Source: a virus
Lineage: Duplodnaviria; Heunggongvirae; Uroviricota; Caudoviricetes
DNA: 33,974 bases
Virus record (IMG/VR): IMGVR_UViG_2711768075_000013
Span: 1-33,974 of that record
Reading direction: 5' to 3' (one strand)
Shown here: one piece after another, positions 29,225-33,693 of the stretch
How positions within the stretch are numbered: the stretch's first letter is position 1
Layout of the letters: each line of letters opens with the position of its first letter
Notes under the pieces: model-generated
Seen by the model: only the letters and a program-made list of their open reading frames with translations
Told to the model about the DNA's origin: nothing
Databases searched by the model: none
Made by a program: the position numbers and the translations under genes

Positions 29225-29869
29225 TTAAACCCCTGCAATATCAAGCGGGATTGCGCGGTATTCATCAGAATCACCAACGCGCTCATACACACGAATATAG
29301 CTCTTGCTGCCAATCACCTGGACGGCTTCACCAATCAGCATCATGGCGTTATTCCAGCGTTCGTCCTCAATTTCGAGGCGACGCAGGGCCAGAACGCGCC
29401 CTGTGTTAATGTTGCCTTCCTTGTCCGTGCTGAATGCCTCGCTAATGATGGCTTTAATTTCAGGGCGCGCACCTTCCGTCCAGTCAGCCAGGCAATCATC
29501 AATCAGCGACTTCGCGGTCTGAATGCGTTCATCAAACGCGATACGGTCCTGCATGGCGCGCTGAATCTTGTATCGCCCGTCAAAGCTGTAAAGCGTGATA
29601 TTGCCTTTTTTGCCGCCTTTCACAGCGCCGTATTTCTCCGCCGACAGGTCAATAAATGCCTGGATATCACCAAACGCACGCAGTTTCAGTTCCCGCAGCG
29701 AGGCGGAGGCAGCAATCACCATCTCCACAAGCTCACCGACCAGCTGCTCGCGGTCGCGGTCAATATCTTTGATAAGGCTTTCAGGTGTCATTACGCCACG
29801 GGCATCCACCCAGTAACCTTCAGGCGCTTGAGTTTTCGTGTATTGCTTAACTTTATTTTCAGTCGTCAT
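29225..29869 (-). CDS. conserved Mu-like early-region protein, 214 aa (possibly DUF3164-like)
   Basis: Position in the semi-essential region; family name is from memory and unverified. Confidence 0.45.
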   Translation of the reverse strand: MTTENKVKQYTKTQAPEGYWVDARGVMTPESLIKDIDRDREQLVGELVEMVIAASASLRELKLRAFGDIQAFIDLSAEKYGAVKGGKKGNITLYSFDGRYKIQRAMQDRIAFDERIQTAKSLIDDCLADWTEGARPEIKAIISEAFSTDKEGNINTGRVLALRRLEIEDERWNNAMMLIGEAVQVIGSKSYIRVYERVGDSDEYRAIPLDIAGV

Positions 29870-29898: not shown

Positions 29899-30114
29899 TT
29901 AATGTGTGTTATGTGCGCGAGGCGCAACGTTTTCAGAAAAAAGATTCACGCCGTTATAGTCATTTCTAAGCGTTTCCTTGATAACATCATGTAATCCTGT
30001 TGCCACCTGAAGCTCCCTTTTGGAAGTGCCATCCTTCGAATAACTCCCTGTAATCCGGGTAAGAGTCGCGCCTTTTTCATTGGTATAGATAATTACTTCT
30101 AATTTAACCGCCAT
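29899..30114 (-). CDS. hypothetical early protein, 71 aa
   Basis: Compact ORF in the minus-strand early operon. Confidence 0.35.
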   Translation of the reverse strand: MAVKLEVIIYTNEKGATLTRITGSYSKDGTSKRELQVATGLHDVIKETLRNDYNGVNLFSENVAPRAHNTH

Positions 30115-30126
30115 TCTGATTTCCTC

Positions 30127-30366
30127 TCATTGCCATACGACGGTACAGCCGTCGATACAGGACGTTTTAACCACGCGGCGCAGGCCGCTGAATGTCTGAA
30201 CGATTTCCGTTACCGGCCATACAGGACCACCCACAGGCGGGCAGGCATAAACCACAGGTAAACGGTGATGCTGCCCCGTTACGCGACCGCCAGTGGTATG
30301 GATAGCCACACGGGCACGGGAACGGACGGCATTAATGGCCTGCTTTTCCATCATTTTGTTCTCCAT
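30127..30366 (-). CDS. hypothetical early protein (kil-position small ORF), about 79 aa
   Basis: ATG overlaps a TGA in a TGATG arrangement inside the repeat copy; ORF-track start at 30444 looks like an upstream extension. Confidence 0.4.
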   Translation of the reverse strand: MENKMMEKQAINAVRSRARVAIHTTGGRVTGQHHRLPVVYACPPVGGPVWPVTEIVQTFSGLRRVVKTSCIDGCTVVWQ

Positions 30367-30384
30367 CAGTGAATTAACATTTCT
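30366..30384. repeat. 19-bp direct repeat, copy 1
   Basis: TCAGTGAATTAACATTTCT, identical to 30739-30757. Confidence 0.6.
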
Positions 30385-30392
30385 CTGCTGTA

Positions 30393-30725
30393 TTATCTGA
30401 GCGTAAACGCCAGTCGGGGCTGATACCGGGGCAGGTGGGCACACATGCGTGCAAGGCGGTAAGCCCGACGAAACCCCTGCAAAGTCTGCTCAAAAGGAAT
30501 AATCATTAATCGCGCACAGCATTCATCAACATCCCAGTCGTCGCTGGTATTTCCGGTTCCATTGATTTCCCGTTCACGGGAATATAAATCAATACGCAGT
30601 TCACCCGGCACGAAGCAATCAACAAACGGAATAATTTCACCGGGGGTTCCATTAAAATAAATACAACCATTACGACCGATATTCCGTAGTGCTTTAATTT
30701 CTTTTTTTACGGCAATCTGTTCCAT
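30393..30725 (-). CDS. hypothetical protein, 110 aa; inserted cassette between B and the next early gene
   Basis: ORF with RBS-like AGGT upstream of ATG; bounded by exact 19-bp direct repeats (30366-30384 and 30739-30757). Confidence 0.45.
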   Translation of the reverse strand: MEQIAVKKEIKALRNIGRNGCIYFNGTPGEIIPFVDCFVPGELRIDLYSREREINGTGNTSDDWDVDECCARLMIIPFEQTLQGFRRAYRLARMCAHLPRYQPRLAFTLR

Positions 30726-30738
30726 ACCTGACCTTTAC

Positions 30739-30757
30739 TCAGTGAATTAACATTTCT
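30739..30757. repeat. 19-bp direct repeat, copy 2 (encodes the MuB C-terminus EMLIH plus stop)
   Basis: TCAGTGAATTAACATTTCT, identical to 30366-30384. Confidence 0.6.
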
Positions 30758-31632
30758 GCGAATTTATCTATGGCCTGCACACTGACCGGCGCATCGCTGA
30801 TATCGCAAATCCGGTACACACCGCGCGCCAGTTTGAACAGGCGGCGGGCATTACCCAGCGAGCGCGCGTAAAGCGCCTCGCTGATTTCCGGTTCTGCTGC
30901 TTCCGGCATCAGCCCGGTGGCTATCTGGTTAAAATCTTCCTGCGCCAGCGTGTCGCCCAGGTTAAGCGCCAGCGCCACGCGGCTGTATAACTGCGCAAAT
31001 TCACCACGACGCCCCTTGAGATTAATCAGAAGACGAGGCATACCCGCCAGGACAACCCCGATACCCGCTTTATCATGCAGACGGCGCAGAACCTCCAGTG
31101 CGCGATAGGGGAGCAGTTCAGCTTCGTCCACCATCAGCAGACGACCGGAATCACGCAGTTCGCGCACACAGGCATCAATCAGTTCGTGAATGTTGCCGCG
31201 AACCTTTACCCCCAGCTGGCGGCACAACTCCTCAAGCAGTGTCCTGGCTGTATAGCCCGGGTCAGCCTCAATCAGGACCGCATCCCGGTTTCTGGCGGCG
31301 TATTCACGCAGAATCATTGTTTTGCCAAGGCCAGCTGCGCCATACAGCACACAGATTTCACATTCCAGGTGAGCGTAGGCCAGCACCTCCAGTCCTTTGG
31401 CAGCCATACCGGTGGTCACAAACTTTGCTTTAATACGGCGGCTGTTTTCCTTTTCCCGCTCACGGGTCACAAAGGCAGAAATGCGTTCTTCAATATCAGC
31501 CATATCGCCCTGATATTTACCCTGCAAATACTGGTTGATAACGGCGCTGCTACGACCAATTGCACGGGCGACGTGGGTCTGCGTATAGCCGCGACGGGCC
31601 ATTACGTCATTTAATTGCGTAATTAAACTCAT
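30739..31632 (-). CDS. B: DNA transposition protein B (MuB-like AAA+ ATPase)
   Basis: Walker A GAAGLGKT and Walker B LLMVDEAE; N-terminal HTH-like region; immediately downstream of the transposase. Confidence 0.85.
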   Translation of the reverse strand: MSLITQLNDVMARRGYTQTHVARAIGRSSAVINQYLQGKYQGDMADIEERISAFVTREREKENSRRIKAKFVTTGMAAKGLEVLAYAHLECEICVLYGAAGLGKTMILREYAARNRDAVLIEADPGYTARTLLEELCRQLGVKVRGNIHELIDACVRELRDSGRLLMVDEAELLPYRALEVLRRLHDKAGIGVVLAGMPRLLINLKGRRGEFAQLYSRVALALNLGDTLAQEDFNQIATGLMPEAAEPEISEALYARSLGNARRLFKLARGVYRICDISDAPVSVQAIDKFAEMLIH

Positions 31633-31650: not shown

Positions 31651-33693
31651 TTAACGGTTGTTTGTGCCGTTTTTCTTTAAATTGCGCTCGCGTTCAGATG
31701 CGAATAAATAAAGTTCTTCTTTTTCCTTTTTCTCCGGGCGCTCCAGACCAAATCCAAAATTAAACTCAGATTTCTGCGTAATAGCCGGGGTAAGCTCGCG
31801 TTTCGCCTCTTCGATTTTCTGCGTGGCCCGTGCAATGCGGCCTCTGGCGCGTTTCTCCTGCTGCTGTTCGATAACAGCTTTCGGGAACGCATCAACCTTA
31901 TTACCGTTCCAGATGGCATCGCAGATATAAGAACCGTCCATCCGCCTGACAATCACGCTGTTTGCGTCGTGAATGTCGTAACAAACCCTGACTTCATTTC
32001 CGTGCTCTGCTGCCAGTTCTGTTGAGAAATAGATGTTTCTGAATAACACCACTTCACCGCGTCGCACCGTGCAGATGCTTTCCGGTCGGAACATTTCATG
32101 CAGTTCTTCCGGCGACAGCATGTCGATTTCAGCTTTCTGCTCCTTTATCAGTTTCCGGCGATACGCTGCCGGGCTGTAATGTTCACCATCCTCTTTGCGG
32201 GGAAGGCTGCTGTGTGGCCGGTTGTTATACCGTTTCACCTCCAGCTCTATTGCGGCCATCAGTTGCTCAAAGGTGGGAACTTCTCCCATAGCCTGAACCT
32301 GCCGCTTTGTCAGCTCTTTCCCTTTGTGGGTGGCCTTAATTGCTGACTGTGTGATGCGTTGCTGCATCATCACCGTTTCCTTGTCTGCATTTTTTGAGCA
32401 GTACGTCTGGAAACTCAGAGCCACATCTTTGGGTATTCCTTTGTTTGCTCGTTCTATTACCCCGCGCCCCTGCGGGTTACCAGGTATCCCCGTGTGATGC
32501 TCCACACCCAGTCGGGGCAGAATCCCGGTAATATCGGCATCAAGTACCTGGTTTTTTTCACCACCCCCGTTATCGGAGTAATAAATCAGCGGTATCCCGT
32601 GTTGTGACATGCCATGACGCAATGCATCAGCAACGGCCACTACGTTCTCCGACAGGGACAGCGACCAGCCCACAATAAAGCGTTGCCCTGCATCCATAAC
32701 CAGTGTCACTTCTGGCCGGAATGTATTCCCGGTGGCAGGGCTGAATGCCATCAGTTTCATACAGTGACCATCCCCGACCCATACCGCATTAACCGGTAAT
32801 GTGCTCCAGTCGCGCCGCACAAAGGGATTGAGCGAACGCCAGGCTGAACCGGTGGAGCGGAAACGCTCTTTAACAATCACCGGGACGCTGCTTAACACCC
32901 GTCTTACTGCGTGAACTGAAGGCAGTGCCGCCAGCATTCCCGCATCGTTCGCGTGTTTTTCATGCCACCAGGCTGAAAACTCGCGATACGCATATTCAAT
33001 GGTCGGGCGCTTCCATGAGCGATAGAACATAAAGAAATCGCTCAACCACCAGACCTGCTCCCACGGTGTTCCCTTATGATGACCGGGAGCCAGTAACGCC
33101 AGTAACTGATTGGCATCACCGCGCGCCATCAGCCAGGTGGAATACCATTCCTGTAAACATCCCCAGCTGACGCCAGTTCGCTTACCCTGTCTGGCGTTGG
33201 CAGTACCTGCGGCCTCGATAATACGCTCGGGCAATGCCATCTGACGAATACCATCAACGATGTGTTTTACTGCTGCCGTCCTGGACATTCCGGCGTATTC
33301 ACGCAGTTTATGCACTTCGGTAGCCAGCAATATCCGCGCATCAGCGATGGCCTTTTGCTTGTCGGTCAGTGCCTGAACTTCGCGTAATGCCAGCTCCGGG
33401 CATTTGACCATCACTTCCAGTTCATCGCGAACGGCGACGTTTTTAACTGCCTTCTGCTCAACCACGGCGGGCAGTTGTGCATCTTCCAGGACCTGATGAG
33501 TCAGGCGCTTACGTAAAACTTTCTGCGCTTCAGCGGGTAGGCAGTCGATGTGATACTCGAATGCTTTGGTACCTTCACGCTTGCGCCTTAATTCAGGTTT
33601 ATTTTCAATTACACGATCTAGACGCGCCCTGACATTGTGTTCACGTGTTGGTAGCCCTCCAATGCCAGCACACTCTTTTGCTGTAATCCACAT
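31651..33693 (-). CDS. A: Mu-type DDE transposase (MuA-like), 680 aa
   Basis: Size and position between ner and B; N-terminus WITAKECAGIGGLP resembles the MuA N-terminal DNA-binding domain. Confidence 0.9.
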   Translation of the reverse strand: MWITAKECAGIGGLPTREHNVRARLDRVIENKPELRRKREGTKAFEYHIDCLPAEAQKVLRKRLTHQVLEDAQLPAVVEQKAVKNVAVRDELEVMVKCPELALREVQALTDKQKAIADARILLATEVHKLREYAGMSRTAAVKHIVDGIRQMALPERIIEAAGTANARQGKRTGVSWGCLQEWYSTWLMARGDANQLLALLAPGHHKGTPWEQVWWLSDFFMFYRSWKRPTIEYAYREFSAWWHEKHANDAGMLAALPSVHAVRRVLSSVPVIVKERFRSTGSAWRSLNPFVRRDWSTLPVNAVWVGDGHCMKLMAFSPATGNTFRPEVTLVMDAGQRFIVGWSLSLSENVVAVADALRHGMSQHGIPLIYYSDNGGGEKNQVLDADITGILPRLGVEHHTGIPGNPQGRGVIERANKGIPKDVALSFQTYCSKNADKETVMMQQRITQSAIKATHKGKELTKRQVQAMGEVPTFEQLMAAIELEVKRYNNRPHSSLPRKEDGEHYSPAAYRRKLIKEQKAEIDMLSPEELHEMFRPESICTVRRGEVVLFRNIYFSTELAAEHGNEVRVCYDIHDANSVIVRRMDGSYICDAIWNGNKVDAFPKAVIEQQQEKRARGRIARATQKIEEAKRELTPAITQKSEFNFGFGLERPEKKEKEELYLFASERERNLKKNGTNNR

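Follow-up and report, generated by a model that had tools for sequence, protein, structure and literature searches.

A variably present gene following B in an E. coli-type Mu-like prophage, bracketed by 19-bp direct repeats and probably regained from a related phage by unequal short-homology crossover

Morons of lambdoid phages carry their own promoter and terminator. They are extra genes between genes that are adjacent in relatives, with a lower GC content than their surroundings; the concept, that of Juhala/Hendrix, is summarised in PMC4378225. Single-ORF insertions and deletions in the Mu-like phages of Pseudomonas aeruginosa lie mostly in the early (left) arm, are of unknown function and are sometimes deviant in composition (Cazares et al. 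2014, PMC4378225), and no flanking sequences that would explain acquisition were found for these regions of genomic plasticity (PMC4378225). T4-type phages contain multi-copy regulatory cassettes of promoter and stem-loop, the PeSLs (Arbiol et al. 2010, PMC2839356; PMC4122927), and the direct repeats around ORFs ease their gain and loss by recombination. Phage mosaicism can also arise by illegitimate or homeologous recombination over short homologies (Martinsohn et al. 2008, PMC2327257). In phage Mu itself (AF083977), the early region has the order ner-A-B-kil with semi-essential early genes E5-E15, and kil follows B after 18 nt.

The window, the whole 33,974-nucleotide stretch of DNA analysed here (IMG/VR record IMGVR_UViG_2711768075_000013), carries the early operon of a Mu-like prophage on its minus strand, in the order ner, A, B, ORF110, kil and onward (Table 1). 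The order is that of Mu, and the B and Kil homologues are recognisable; however, in Mu no gene separates B from kil, and no ORF110 relative was found there. As in the P. aeruginosa phages, a short single accessory ORF is present or absent at a fixed slot between core genes. Those phages and their proteins are unrelated in sequence to the ones in the window, however, and the E. coli unit, which is seen filled and empty in two lineages, has a legible putative scar of 19 bp.

Table 1. Features of the B-kil region and its surroundings in the window
Feature	Position	Strand	Remarks
MuA-type transposase gene	31651-33693	minus	680 aa; homologous loci have HTH_Tnp_Mu_1 and Mu-transpos_C
MuB-like AAA+ ATPase gene (B)	30739..31632	minus	297 aa; C-terminus ...FAEMLIH-stop; directly downstream of the MuA-type gene
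B-side copy of the 19-mer	30739..30757	minus	final B codons and stop
B-ORF110 spacer, GTAAAGGTCAGGT	30726..30738	minus	13 nt; Shine-Dalgarno-like AAGG/AGG for ORF110
ORF110	30393..30725	minus	110 aa; 'post-B' family of Mu-like phages, without annotation
ORF110 3' flank, TACAGCAG	30385..30392	minus	8 nt; homologous to the flank TGCAGCGG of repeat-less loci
AGAAAT	30379..30384	minus	putative crossover zone; first 6 nt of the kil-side repeat copy
kil-side copy of the 19-mer	30366..30384	minus	non-coding; fossil of the recipient phage's B 3' end
kil Shine-Dalgarno region, TGGAGAAC	30358..30365	minus	abuts the stop codon of the repeat copy
kil homologue	30127..30354	minus	74-75 aa; likely start is the second ATG, 30351..30349
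71-aa gene		minus	downstream of kil
DUF3164 gene	29225-29869	minus	follows the 71-aa gene

The product of the gene upstream of ORF110 matches Pfam AAA_22 (E=9e-23), TniB and an N-terminal HTH domain, and is 32% identical to the B protein of phage Mu over 214 aa (BLASTP, E=3e-21); it is an AAA+ ATPase and a Mu B homologue, encoded directly after a MuA-type gene. At the protein level its C-terminus, (E/K/N)MLI(H/N)-stop, is kept in distant relatives with synonymous variation, as compared in L008, L014, L030, L037, L042, L045 and L046, where the B proteins are otherwise divergent. Mu B ends differently (...LLRN-stop, not EMLIH-stop). The E. coli/Salmonella alleles that end in LIH-stop are identical over the final 14 nt of B, synonymous positions included. 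The product of the downstream gene matches PHROG 2679, 'Kil protein for bacterial septation inhibition' (E=3e-35), and Mu Kil itself (BLASTP, E=2e-5), and the equivalent gene in L037 has a precomputed Pfam Kil_protein match. By these sequence criteria the gene qualifies as a homologue of Mu kil, in agreement with its first assignment.

The exact 19-mer TCAGTGAATTAACATTTCT, which reads AGAAATGTTAATTCACTGA in the transcribed sense (minus strand), is present in two copies spaced 373 bp apart, and no further copy was found in the window at up to three mismatches. Exact search and frame reading confirm the preliminary description of a 110-aa ORF between B and kil that is bracketed by 19-bp direct repeats, one copy being the 3' end of B (EMLIH-stop). 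The kil-side copy starts 8 nt past the TAA of ORF110, reads EMLIH-stop in the frame of that TAA and ends in TGA-TGGAGAAC. Two matches to the 19-mer were obtained in 0 of 100 dinucleotide-preserving shuffles; the pair is not expected by chance. The filled structure is also found in eight other independently assembled loci. An assembly artefact or a chance repeat was rejected on account of the shuffles and of the same structure across nine independent assemblies. A general translational-coupling signal was likewise rejected, the window holding only the two copies.

ORFs bracketed by direct repeats could excise as circles and re-integrate, as for PeSL-flanked genes (PMC2839356), and the 19-mer might accordingly serve a dedicated cassette system (integron attC-like or T4-type PeSL-like) as its site of attachment or shuffling, with ORFs cycling as minicircles. 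However, the 34-kb prophage has only the two copies and none at other gene boundaries, they contain no promoter or stem-loop, no site-specific recombinase other than MuA is encoded nearby, and a single ORF family occupies the B-kil junction across the loci examined. We regard such a system as highly improbable. The 19-mer differs from a PeSL in being a two-copy duplicate of a coding 3' end.

Empty sites were sought with an 801-bp query across the region against 5426 complete E. coli genomes. The B-kil backbone was matched in 58 of them, over the full length of the query in 10; most of the others gave two-piece matches spanning 428 or 399 bp, in each case 373 bp less than the stretch of query matched. 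With a cassette-only query the unit was again found in just 10 of the 5426 genomes. Two of the ten unit-bearing records are plasmids of ~249 kb (NZ_OZ547097.1 and NZ_OZ547049.1); the Mu-like prophage has therefore also transposed into large plasmids. No match was found in sequenced phages for the DNA (blastn), nor in sequenced phages and plasmids for the proteins (tblastn). An alignment-based search for related loci returned five IMG/VR loci. Representative-genome DNA was also scanned, with nothing found for a kil-start pattern and only chance matches for the B-end 18-mer, one of which (L020) is a chromosomal non-phage region.

At base level, four E. coli-type loci (L002-L005) have a single 19-mer, and the B stop codon is followed directly by TGGAGAAC and kil. 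The filled locus L001 and the empty locus L005 are nearly isogenic: they differ by exactly positions 1738-2110 of L001 (373 bp), their B and Kil proteins are identical, and the adjacent genes are ~99% identical, with 6 substitutions in B and 7 in kil. Empty sites are known from the E. coli-type loci L002-L005, from the Salmonella-type loci L022-L035 and from Mu. The preliminary description had proposed that the gene after ORF110 was originally coupled directly to B, and that related Mu-like prophages should provide empty sites. Both proposals hold: E. coli-type prophages and Mu have such sites, and in the related prophages B and kil are adjacent, with one 19-mer and minus exactly 373 bp. Relatives are thus not uniformly filled with the repeat, nor is the repeat a general coupling signal, either of which would have spoken against the proposal. 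Because the empty relatives keep one 19-mer, the filled state derives from a B-kil junction with duplication.

The opposite polarity, in which the filled state is ancestral in the E. coli lineage and every empty site is a deletion between the repeats, so that the polymorphism is one of loss only, gains some plausibility from the near-isogenic pair L001 and L005, which differ by exactly one repeat unit, from direct repeats of 19-22 bp being good substrates for precise deletion, and from the age of the family and its being native to the slot after B. It leaves unexplained, however, the presence of a B 3'-end copy downstream of the ORF, which itself requires a prior B-kil junction. Empty junctions free of the repeat are moreover present in Mu and in Salmonella-type phages, and outside the E. 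coli lineage repeat-less filled loci are the rule. Loss alone is therefore an unlikely account. The direct repeats do now allow precise loss of the unit by repeat-mediated deletion, and some empty sites, L005 among them, may have arisen by later loss.

ORF110 is a genuine gene. Pairwise dN/dS values are 0.09-0.33, mostly ~0.1, and dS reaches 1.28; since dN/dS is low at such a dS, the gene is old and has been maintained by purifying selection. Among close homologues, which come from E. coli and Salmonella, there are only five full-length clusters, at 74-97% identity. In an exhaustive profile search with the ORF110 family, covering 1.84 billion representatives, 21 matches were obtained. One is a 573-aa repeat match and 20 are family members, namely P0002, the closely related P0006 (89 aa) and 18 further proteins that are 86-111 aa long and 27-53% identical. 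Overall, family members are 85-111 aa long and come from E. coli, Salmonella, Enterobacter, Providencia and Aeromonas; those that have been named all carry the label 'hypothetical protein'. The family alignment has the motifs D.YS..RE..G and DWDVD and a basic C-terminal helix, FRRAYRLAR. A cysteine-based metal site was considered and dropped, as the cysteines are not conserved in distant members. In one IMG/VR locus (L049), otherwise identical to the window, a run of seven A at 30702-30708 (T7 on the plus strand), in codons 7-9 of ORF110, is shortened to six, which shifts the frame after ~8 codons; the change is either a sequencing error in the homopolymer or inactivation of the gene at a slippage-prone run.

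In every context examined (three close and five distant clusters) the family gene lies immediately downstream of a MuB homologue, within an early operon of the Mu type. Its 3' neighbour varies: some loci have kil there, and others have small ORFs unrelated to it. What characterises this 'post-B' family in the Mu-like phages of Enterobacterales and Aeromonas is a conserved position combined with variable presence; it is missing from Mu and from all deposited phage genomes and plasmids that were searched. The composition of ORF110 differs from that of its neighbours (GC 46.5% and GC3 41.4%, against 55.1/58.1 for B and 57.5/56.6 for kil). The earlier suggestion that the ORF is foreign cargo inserted into the operon is nevertheless not borne out, as the family sits after a MuB homologue in all contexts, down to 27% identity, in several genera and mostly without repeats. 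ORF110 is a native early gene, variably present and exchanged between related phages.

No duplicate of the B end was found in the Salmonella-type filled loci (L008-L014 and L053) or in the distant loci (27-53% identity); the 19-bp repeat is specific to the E. coli lineage. Comparison of the junctions suggests how it may have arisen. Salmonella-type filled loci read ...CACTGA GTAAGGATTTATGT, the ORF with its TAA, TGCAGCGGAGAAAT, CATC and the ATG of kil, and the corresponding empty loci read ...CACTGA GTCCGGGTAATTATTTAATTCGGAGAATCTTTT and the ATG of kil. In E. coli-type loci the filled junction is the ORF with its TAA, T(A/G)C(A/G)GC(A/G)(G/C), AGAAAT, GTTAATTCACTGA and TGGAGAAC..., and the empty junction is ...TTCGC, AGAAAT, GTTAATTCACTGA and TGGAGAAC.... 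On the left, the spacer of the window, GTAAAGGTCAGGT, is homologous to the Salmonella-type filled spacer GTAAGGATTTATGT. On the right, the 3' flank of E. coli-type filled loci agrees with that of repeat-less loci at 12-13 of the 14 positions through AGAAAT; from AGAAAT on, it does not differ from the sequence of the empty site. The hexamer AGAAAT occurs both in the ORF-kil spacer of repeat-less loci, GGAGAAAT, where it ends the ribosome-binding region of kil, and in the 3' end of B, GCAGAAAT; when the flanks are included, 8 of 9 positions match. Since Mu has GGAGAAGAAAT ahead of kil, a motif of the AGAAAT type is native to the ribosome-binding region of kil.

On the evidence of these alignments, the 19-bp repeat is most plausibly a scar, left when two related phages crossed over unequally at a short homology, and not a transposon target duplication. 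The slot would have been empty beforehand in the E. coli lineage, with the stop codon of B abutting the kil Shine-Dalgarno sequence. The donor would have been a related phage with a repeat-free gene of the ORF110 type, whose ORF-kil spacer, ...TGCAGCGGAGAAAT, would have paired with the 3' end of the recipient's B, ...TTCGCAGAAAT, over a microhomology of 6-9 bp. In the recombinant, B and ORF110 would be followed by the final 19 nt of the recipient's B and then by kil. The unit could afterwards have been joined to different B alleles by ordinary homologous recombination at or close to the conserved 3' end of B. This is mosaicism by short-homology recombination of the kind already described (PMC2327257), with the joint at AGAAAT; there is no difference in kind, only that junctions of the donor type, the recipient type and the product can all be aligned here.

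The idea that the next gene was separated from B by a cassette inserted with duplication of the junction stands as far as the duplication of the B-kil junction is concerned. It does not stand as a flush target-site duplication, the homology to repeat-less loci running 6 nt (AGAAAT) into the kil-side copy and not stopping at its edge. Taken literally, the insertion model invokes a mobile cassette that entered B-kil by a staggered cut (transposase, homing or end-joining) and left a true target-site duplication of 19-22 bp, and it would account for a single ORF between exact direct repeats, for the one 19-mer copy at empty sites and for the GC3 of ORF110 being below that of its neighbours. However, the unit has no terminal inverted repeats at its ends, the 110-aa protein has no transposase or nuclease domain (Pfam, NCBIfam, PHROGs, PDB), the unit is found solely after B in the loci examined, and most family members occupy the same slot without any duplication. 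To our knowledge, 19-22 bp also far exceeds the target-site duplications of transposable elements. We consider a mobile cassette very unlikely.

The best explanation overall is that the gene was probably regained from a related phage by unequal crossover and that the repeat is the recombination scar. Several observations fit this reading less well. The known repeat-less loci have only 74-79% protein identity to ORF110, which implies either an old event or a true donor that is still unsampled. The AGAAAT homology spans just 6 bp (8/9 with flanks), and the model is built on one junction type, seen in three flank haplotypes. The left-hand exchange is a further difficulty, as B is of the E. coli type up to its last ~18 nt. 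Finally, L001-type loci read GCGCAGAAAT, which extends the repeat to 22 bp. This could have come about through a slightly shifted crossover, through a second event or through substitution at a later time; it is compatible with the same imperfect 9-bp heteroduplex resolved towards the recipient, as well as with the latter two.

The unit has since been combined with different neighbours. Two other alleles of the B-ORF110 spacer exist, one in L006 and one in L036, L051 and L052. The latter three loci have a divergent B that ends ...MLIK-stop (TTAATTAAGTGA) and departs from the identical last 14 nt noted above, and in L031 an E. coli-type B is joined to a Salmonella-type spacer and kil. These combinations show that the ORF-kil unit has been paired with different B alleles by exchange, and recombination of B alleles at the B 3' end has occurred repeatedly (for example L031, L036, L051). 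The direction and the number of the recombination events are inferred. L036 (E. coli RM9088, NZ_CP042298.1) is a prophage degraded by two IS1A insertions, one truncating transposase A and the second downstream of kil; its B, ORF110 and kil are still intact.

The kil-side copy is identical at 19/19 positions in all nine E. coli-type filled loci, L036, L051 and L052 included. Because it has the canonical LIH-stop sequence even in loci whose B ends in LIK-stop, it is a fossil of the original recipient's B end and not a copy of the resident B. Over the three flank haplotypes, variable positions number 0/19 in the repeat and 0/8 in the Shine-Dalgarno region, versus 6/14 in adjacent non-coding sequence (Fisher p=0.003, repeat vs adjacent), and TGGAGAAC does not vary among the E. 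coli-type loci, whether filled or empty. Such invariance of a non-coding copy is not predicted by a neutral scar; the crossover model needs in addition either selection on the sequence preceding kil or recurrent exchange with phages of the empty-site type. The conservation accordingly points either to constraint upstream of kil or to homogenisation with empty-site phages, in which the block is coding.

The first of these would make the kil-side copy functional: the 19 nt together with TGGAGAAC would be the native translation-initiation context of the toxic kil, and only recombinants that preserve it would be viable. It could act, for example, as an AU-rich leader or as a mini-ORF, AUG-UUA-AUU-CAC-UGA, ending on the kil Shine-Dalgarno sequence. 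A functional copy would complement the scar model. The 27-nt block is invariant in nine filled and four empty E. coli-type loci, it remains canonical even in loci where the end of B itself is altered, and the ORF110 stop, the mini-ORF and the TGA share one frame. However, Salmonella-type phages and Mu express kil without the 19-mer sequence, the RNA structure of the repeat regions is not above that of shuffled controls, only three flank haplotypes are independent, and recombination with empty-site phages could maintain the uniformity. A function of the copy is thus possible but doubtful.

The region also bears on where kil starts. The preliminary description had the stop of the repeat overlapping the start of the next gene in TGATG. 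The TGATG is indeed present at the kil-side copy, but the ATG within it is probably not the start of kil. Starts in PGAP annotations and in the Salmonella and Mu homologues lie 12-15 nt beyond it (MMEKQ/MEKQ), the kil Shine-Dalgarno sequence GGAG is immediately 3' of the TGA, and the kil genes of Salmonella-type phages and Mu have no overlap of the TGATG type. The overlap is probably that of the B-copy stop with the Shine-Dalgarno sequence. The ATGATG at 30349-30354 is ACGATG in L001, L003 and L005; the second ATG is the conserved kil initiator because the first is ACG in these loci.

On the minus strand no sigma-70-like promoter or intrinsic terminator was found in 30366-30757. ORF110 starts 13 nt after the B stop codon, behind AAGG/AGG, and 41 nt separate it from kil. 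With neither signal supplied by the unit itself, ORF110 would be translated from the early polycistronic transcript.

Searches for a function of ORF110 were negative throughout. ORF110 has no match in Pfam, PHROG, NCBIfam, PADLOC or PDB; searches of all 22 family members against Pfam, PHROGs, NCBIfam and PADLOC gave nothing meaningful, and the family profile has no match among PDB sequences. The AF2 model has a core pLDDT of 82-94, and its fold has no significant match: no similar PDB chain was found, and the best viral predicted structure scored E=0.066. Our guess, offered with low confidence, is that ORF110 is a small protein-binding accessory factor that acts early in the lytic cycle and is tied to B or transposition; a link to these rather than to kil is suggested because only the adjacency to B is conserved. 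The anti-defence or host-takeover role proposed earlier is neither supported nor excluded.

A more elaborate scheme would give the 'post-B' family a hitherto unrecognised accessory role in Mu-type transposition or in the early takeover of the host. Its members might, for instance, modulate target capture or immunity by MuB, or block a host defence that responds to transposition. The 19-bp repeats would then form a reversible on/off module, switched by precise deletion and by re-acquisition from filled relatives, and the kil-side copy would double as a leader that couples translation of the toxic kil. As a whole this scheme is speculative and distinctly unlikely.

Of the known categories, the ORF110 unit resembles the moron in being an extra ORF of deviant composition, but it lacks a promoter and terminator, is read from the early operon and belongs to a family that is native to its slot and not imported. 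Neither the inverted repeats and enzyme of a transposable element nor its flush duplication and varied targets were found. Features of PeSL or integron systems are likewise missing, as there are two copies, no structure beyond shuffles and one ORF family. Because the defining features were looked for and are absent, the unit is not a moron, a transposon or a cassette system; it works like short-homology recombination.

Other parts of the early region are variable too. The slot of the DUF3164 gene (also compared in L012, L014 and L030-L033) holds either a DUF3164 gene (214 aa) or a homologue of Mu Gam (174 aa, PF07352), which looks like replacement by alternative genes. Between kil and the DUF3164 gene (29899-30126 in the window) there is one small ORF in the window, L002 and L004, and there are three in L001 and L005. 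The number of small ORFs being variable, the early region therefore has several other single-gene indel slots.

The molecular joints behind the gain and loss of phage genes are rarely legible. Here an unequal crossover over 6-9 bp that would have duplicated the end of an essential gene can be read from the junctions. It is a clearly resolved yet mechanistically ordinary case of phage gene shuffling, and it does not overturn current understanding. The protein family defined here is unannotated and absent from Pfam, PHROGs and NCBIfam, and its only constant feature is its position right after MuB. The 'post-B' family is thereby a cheap and concrete candidate for studying the accessory control of Mu-type transposition or early phage-host conflict.
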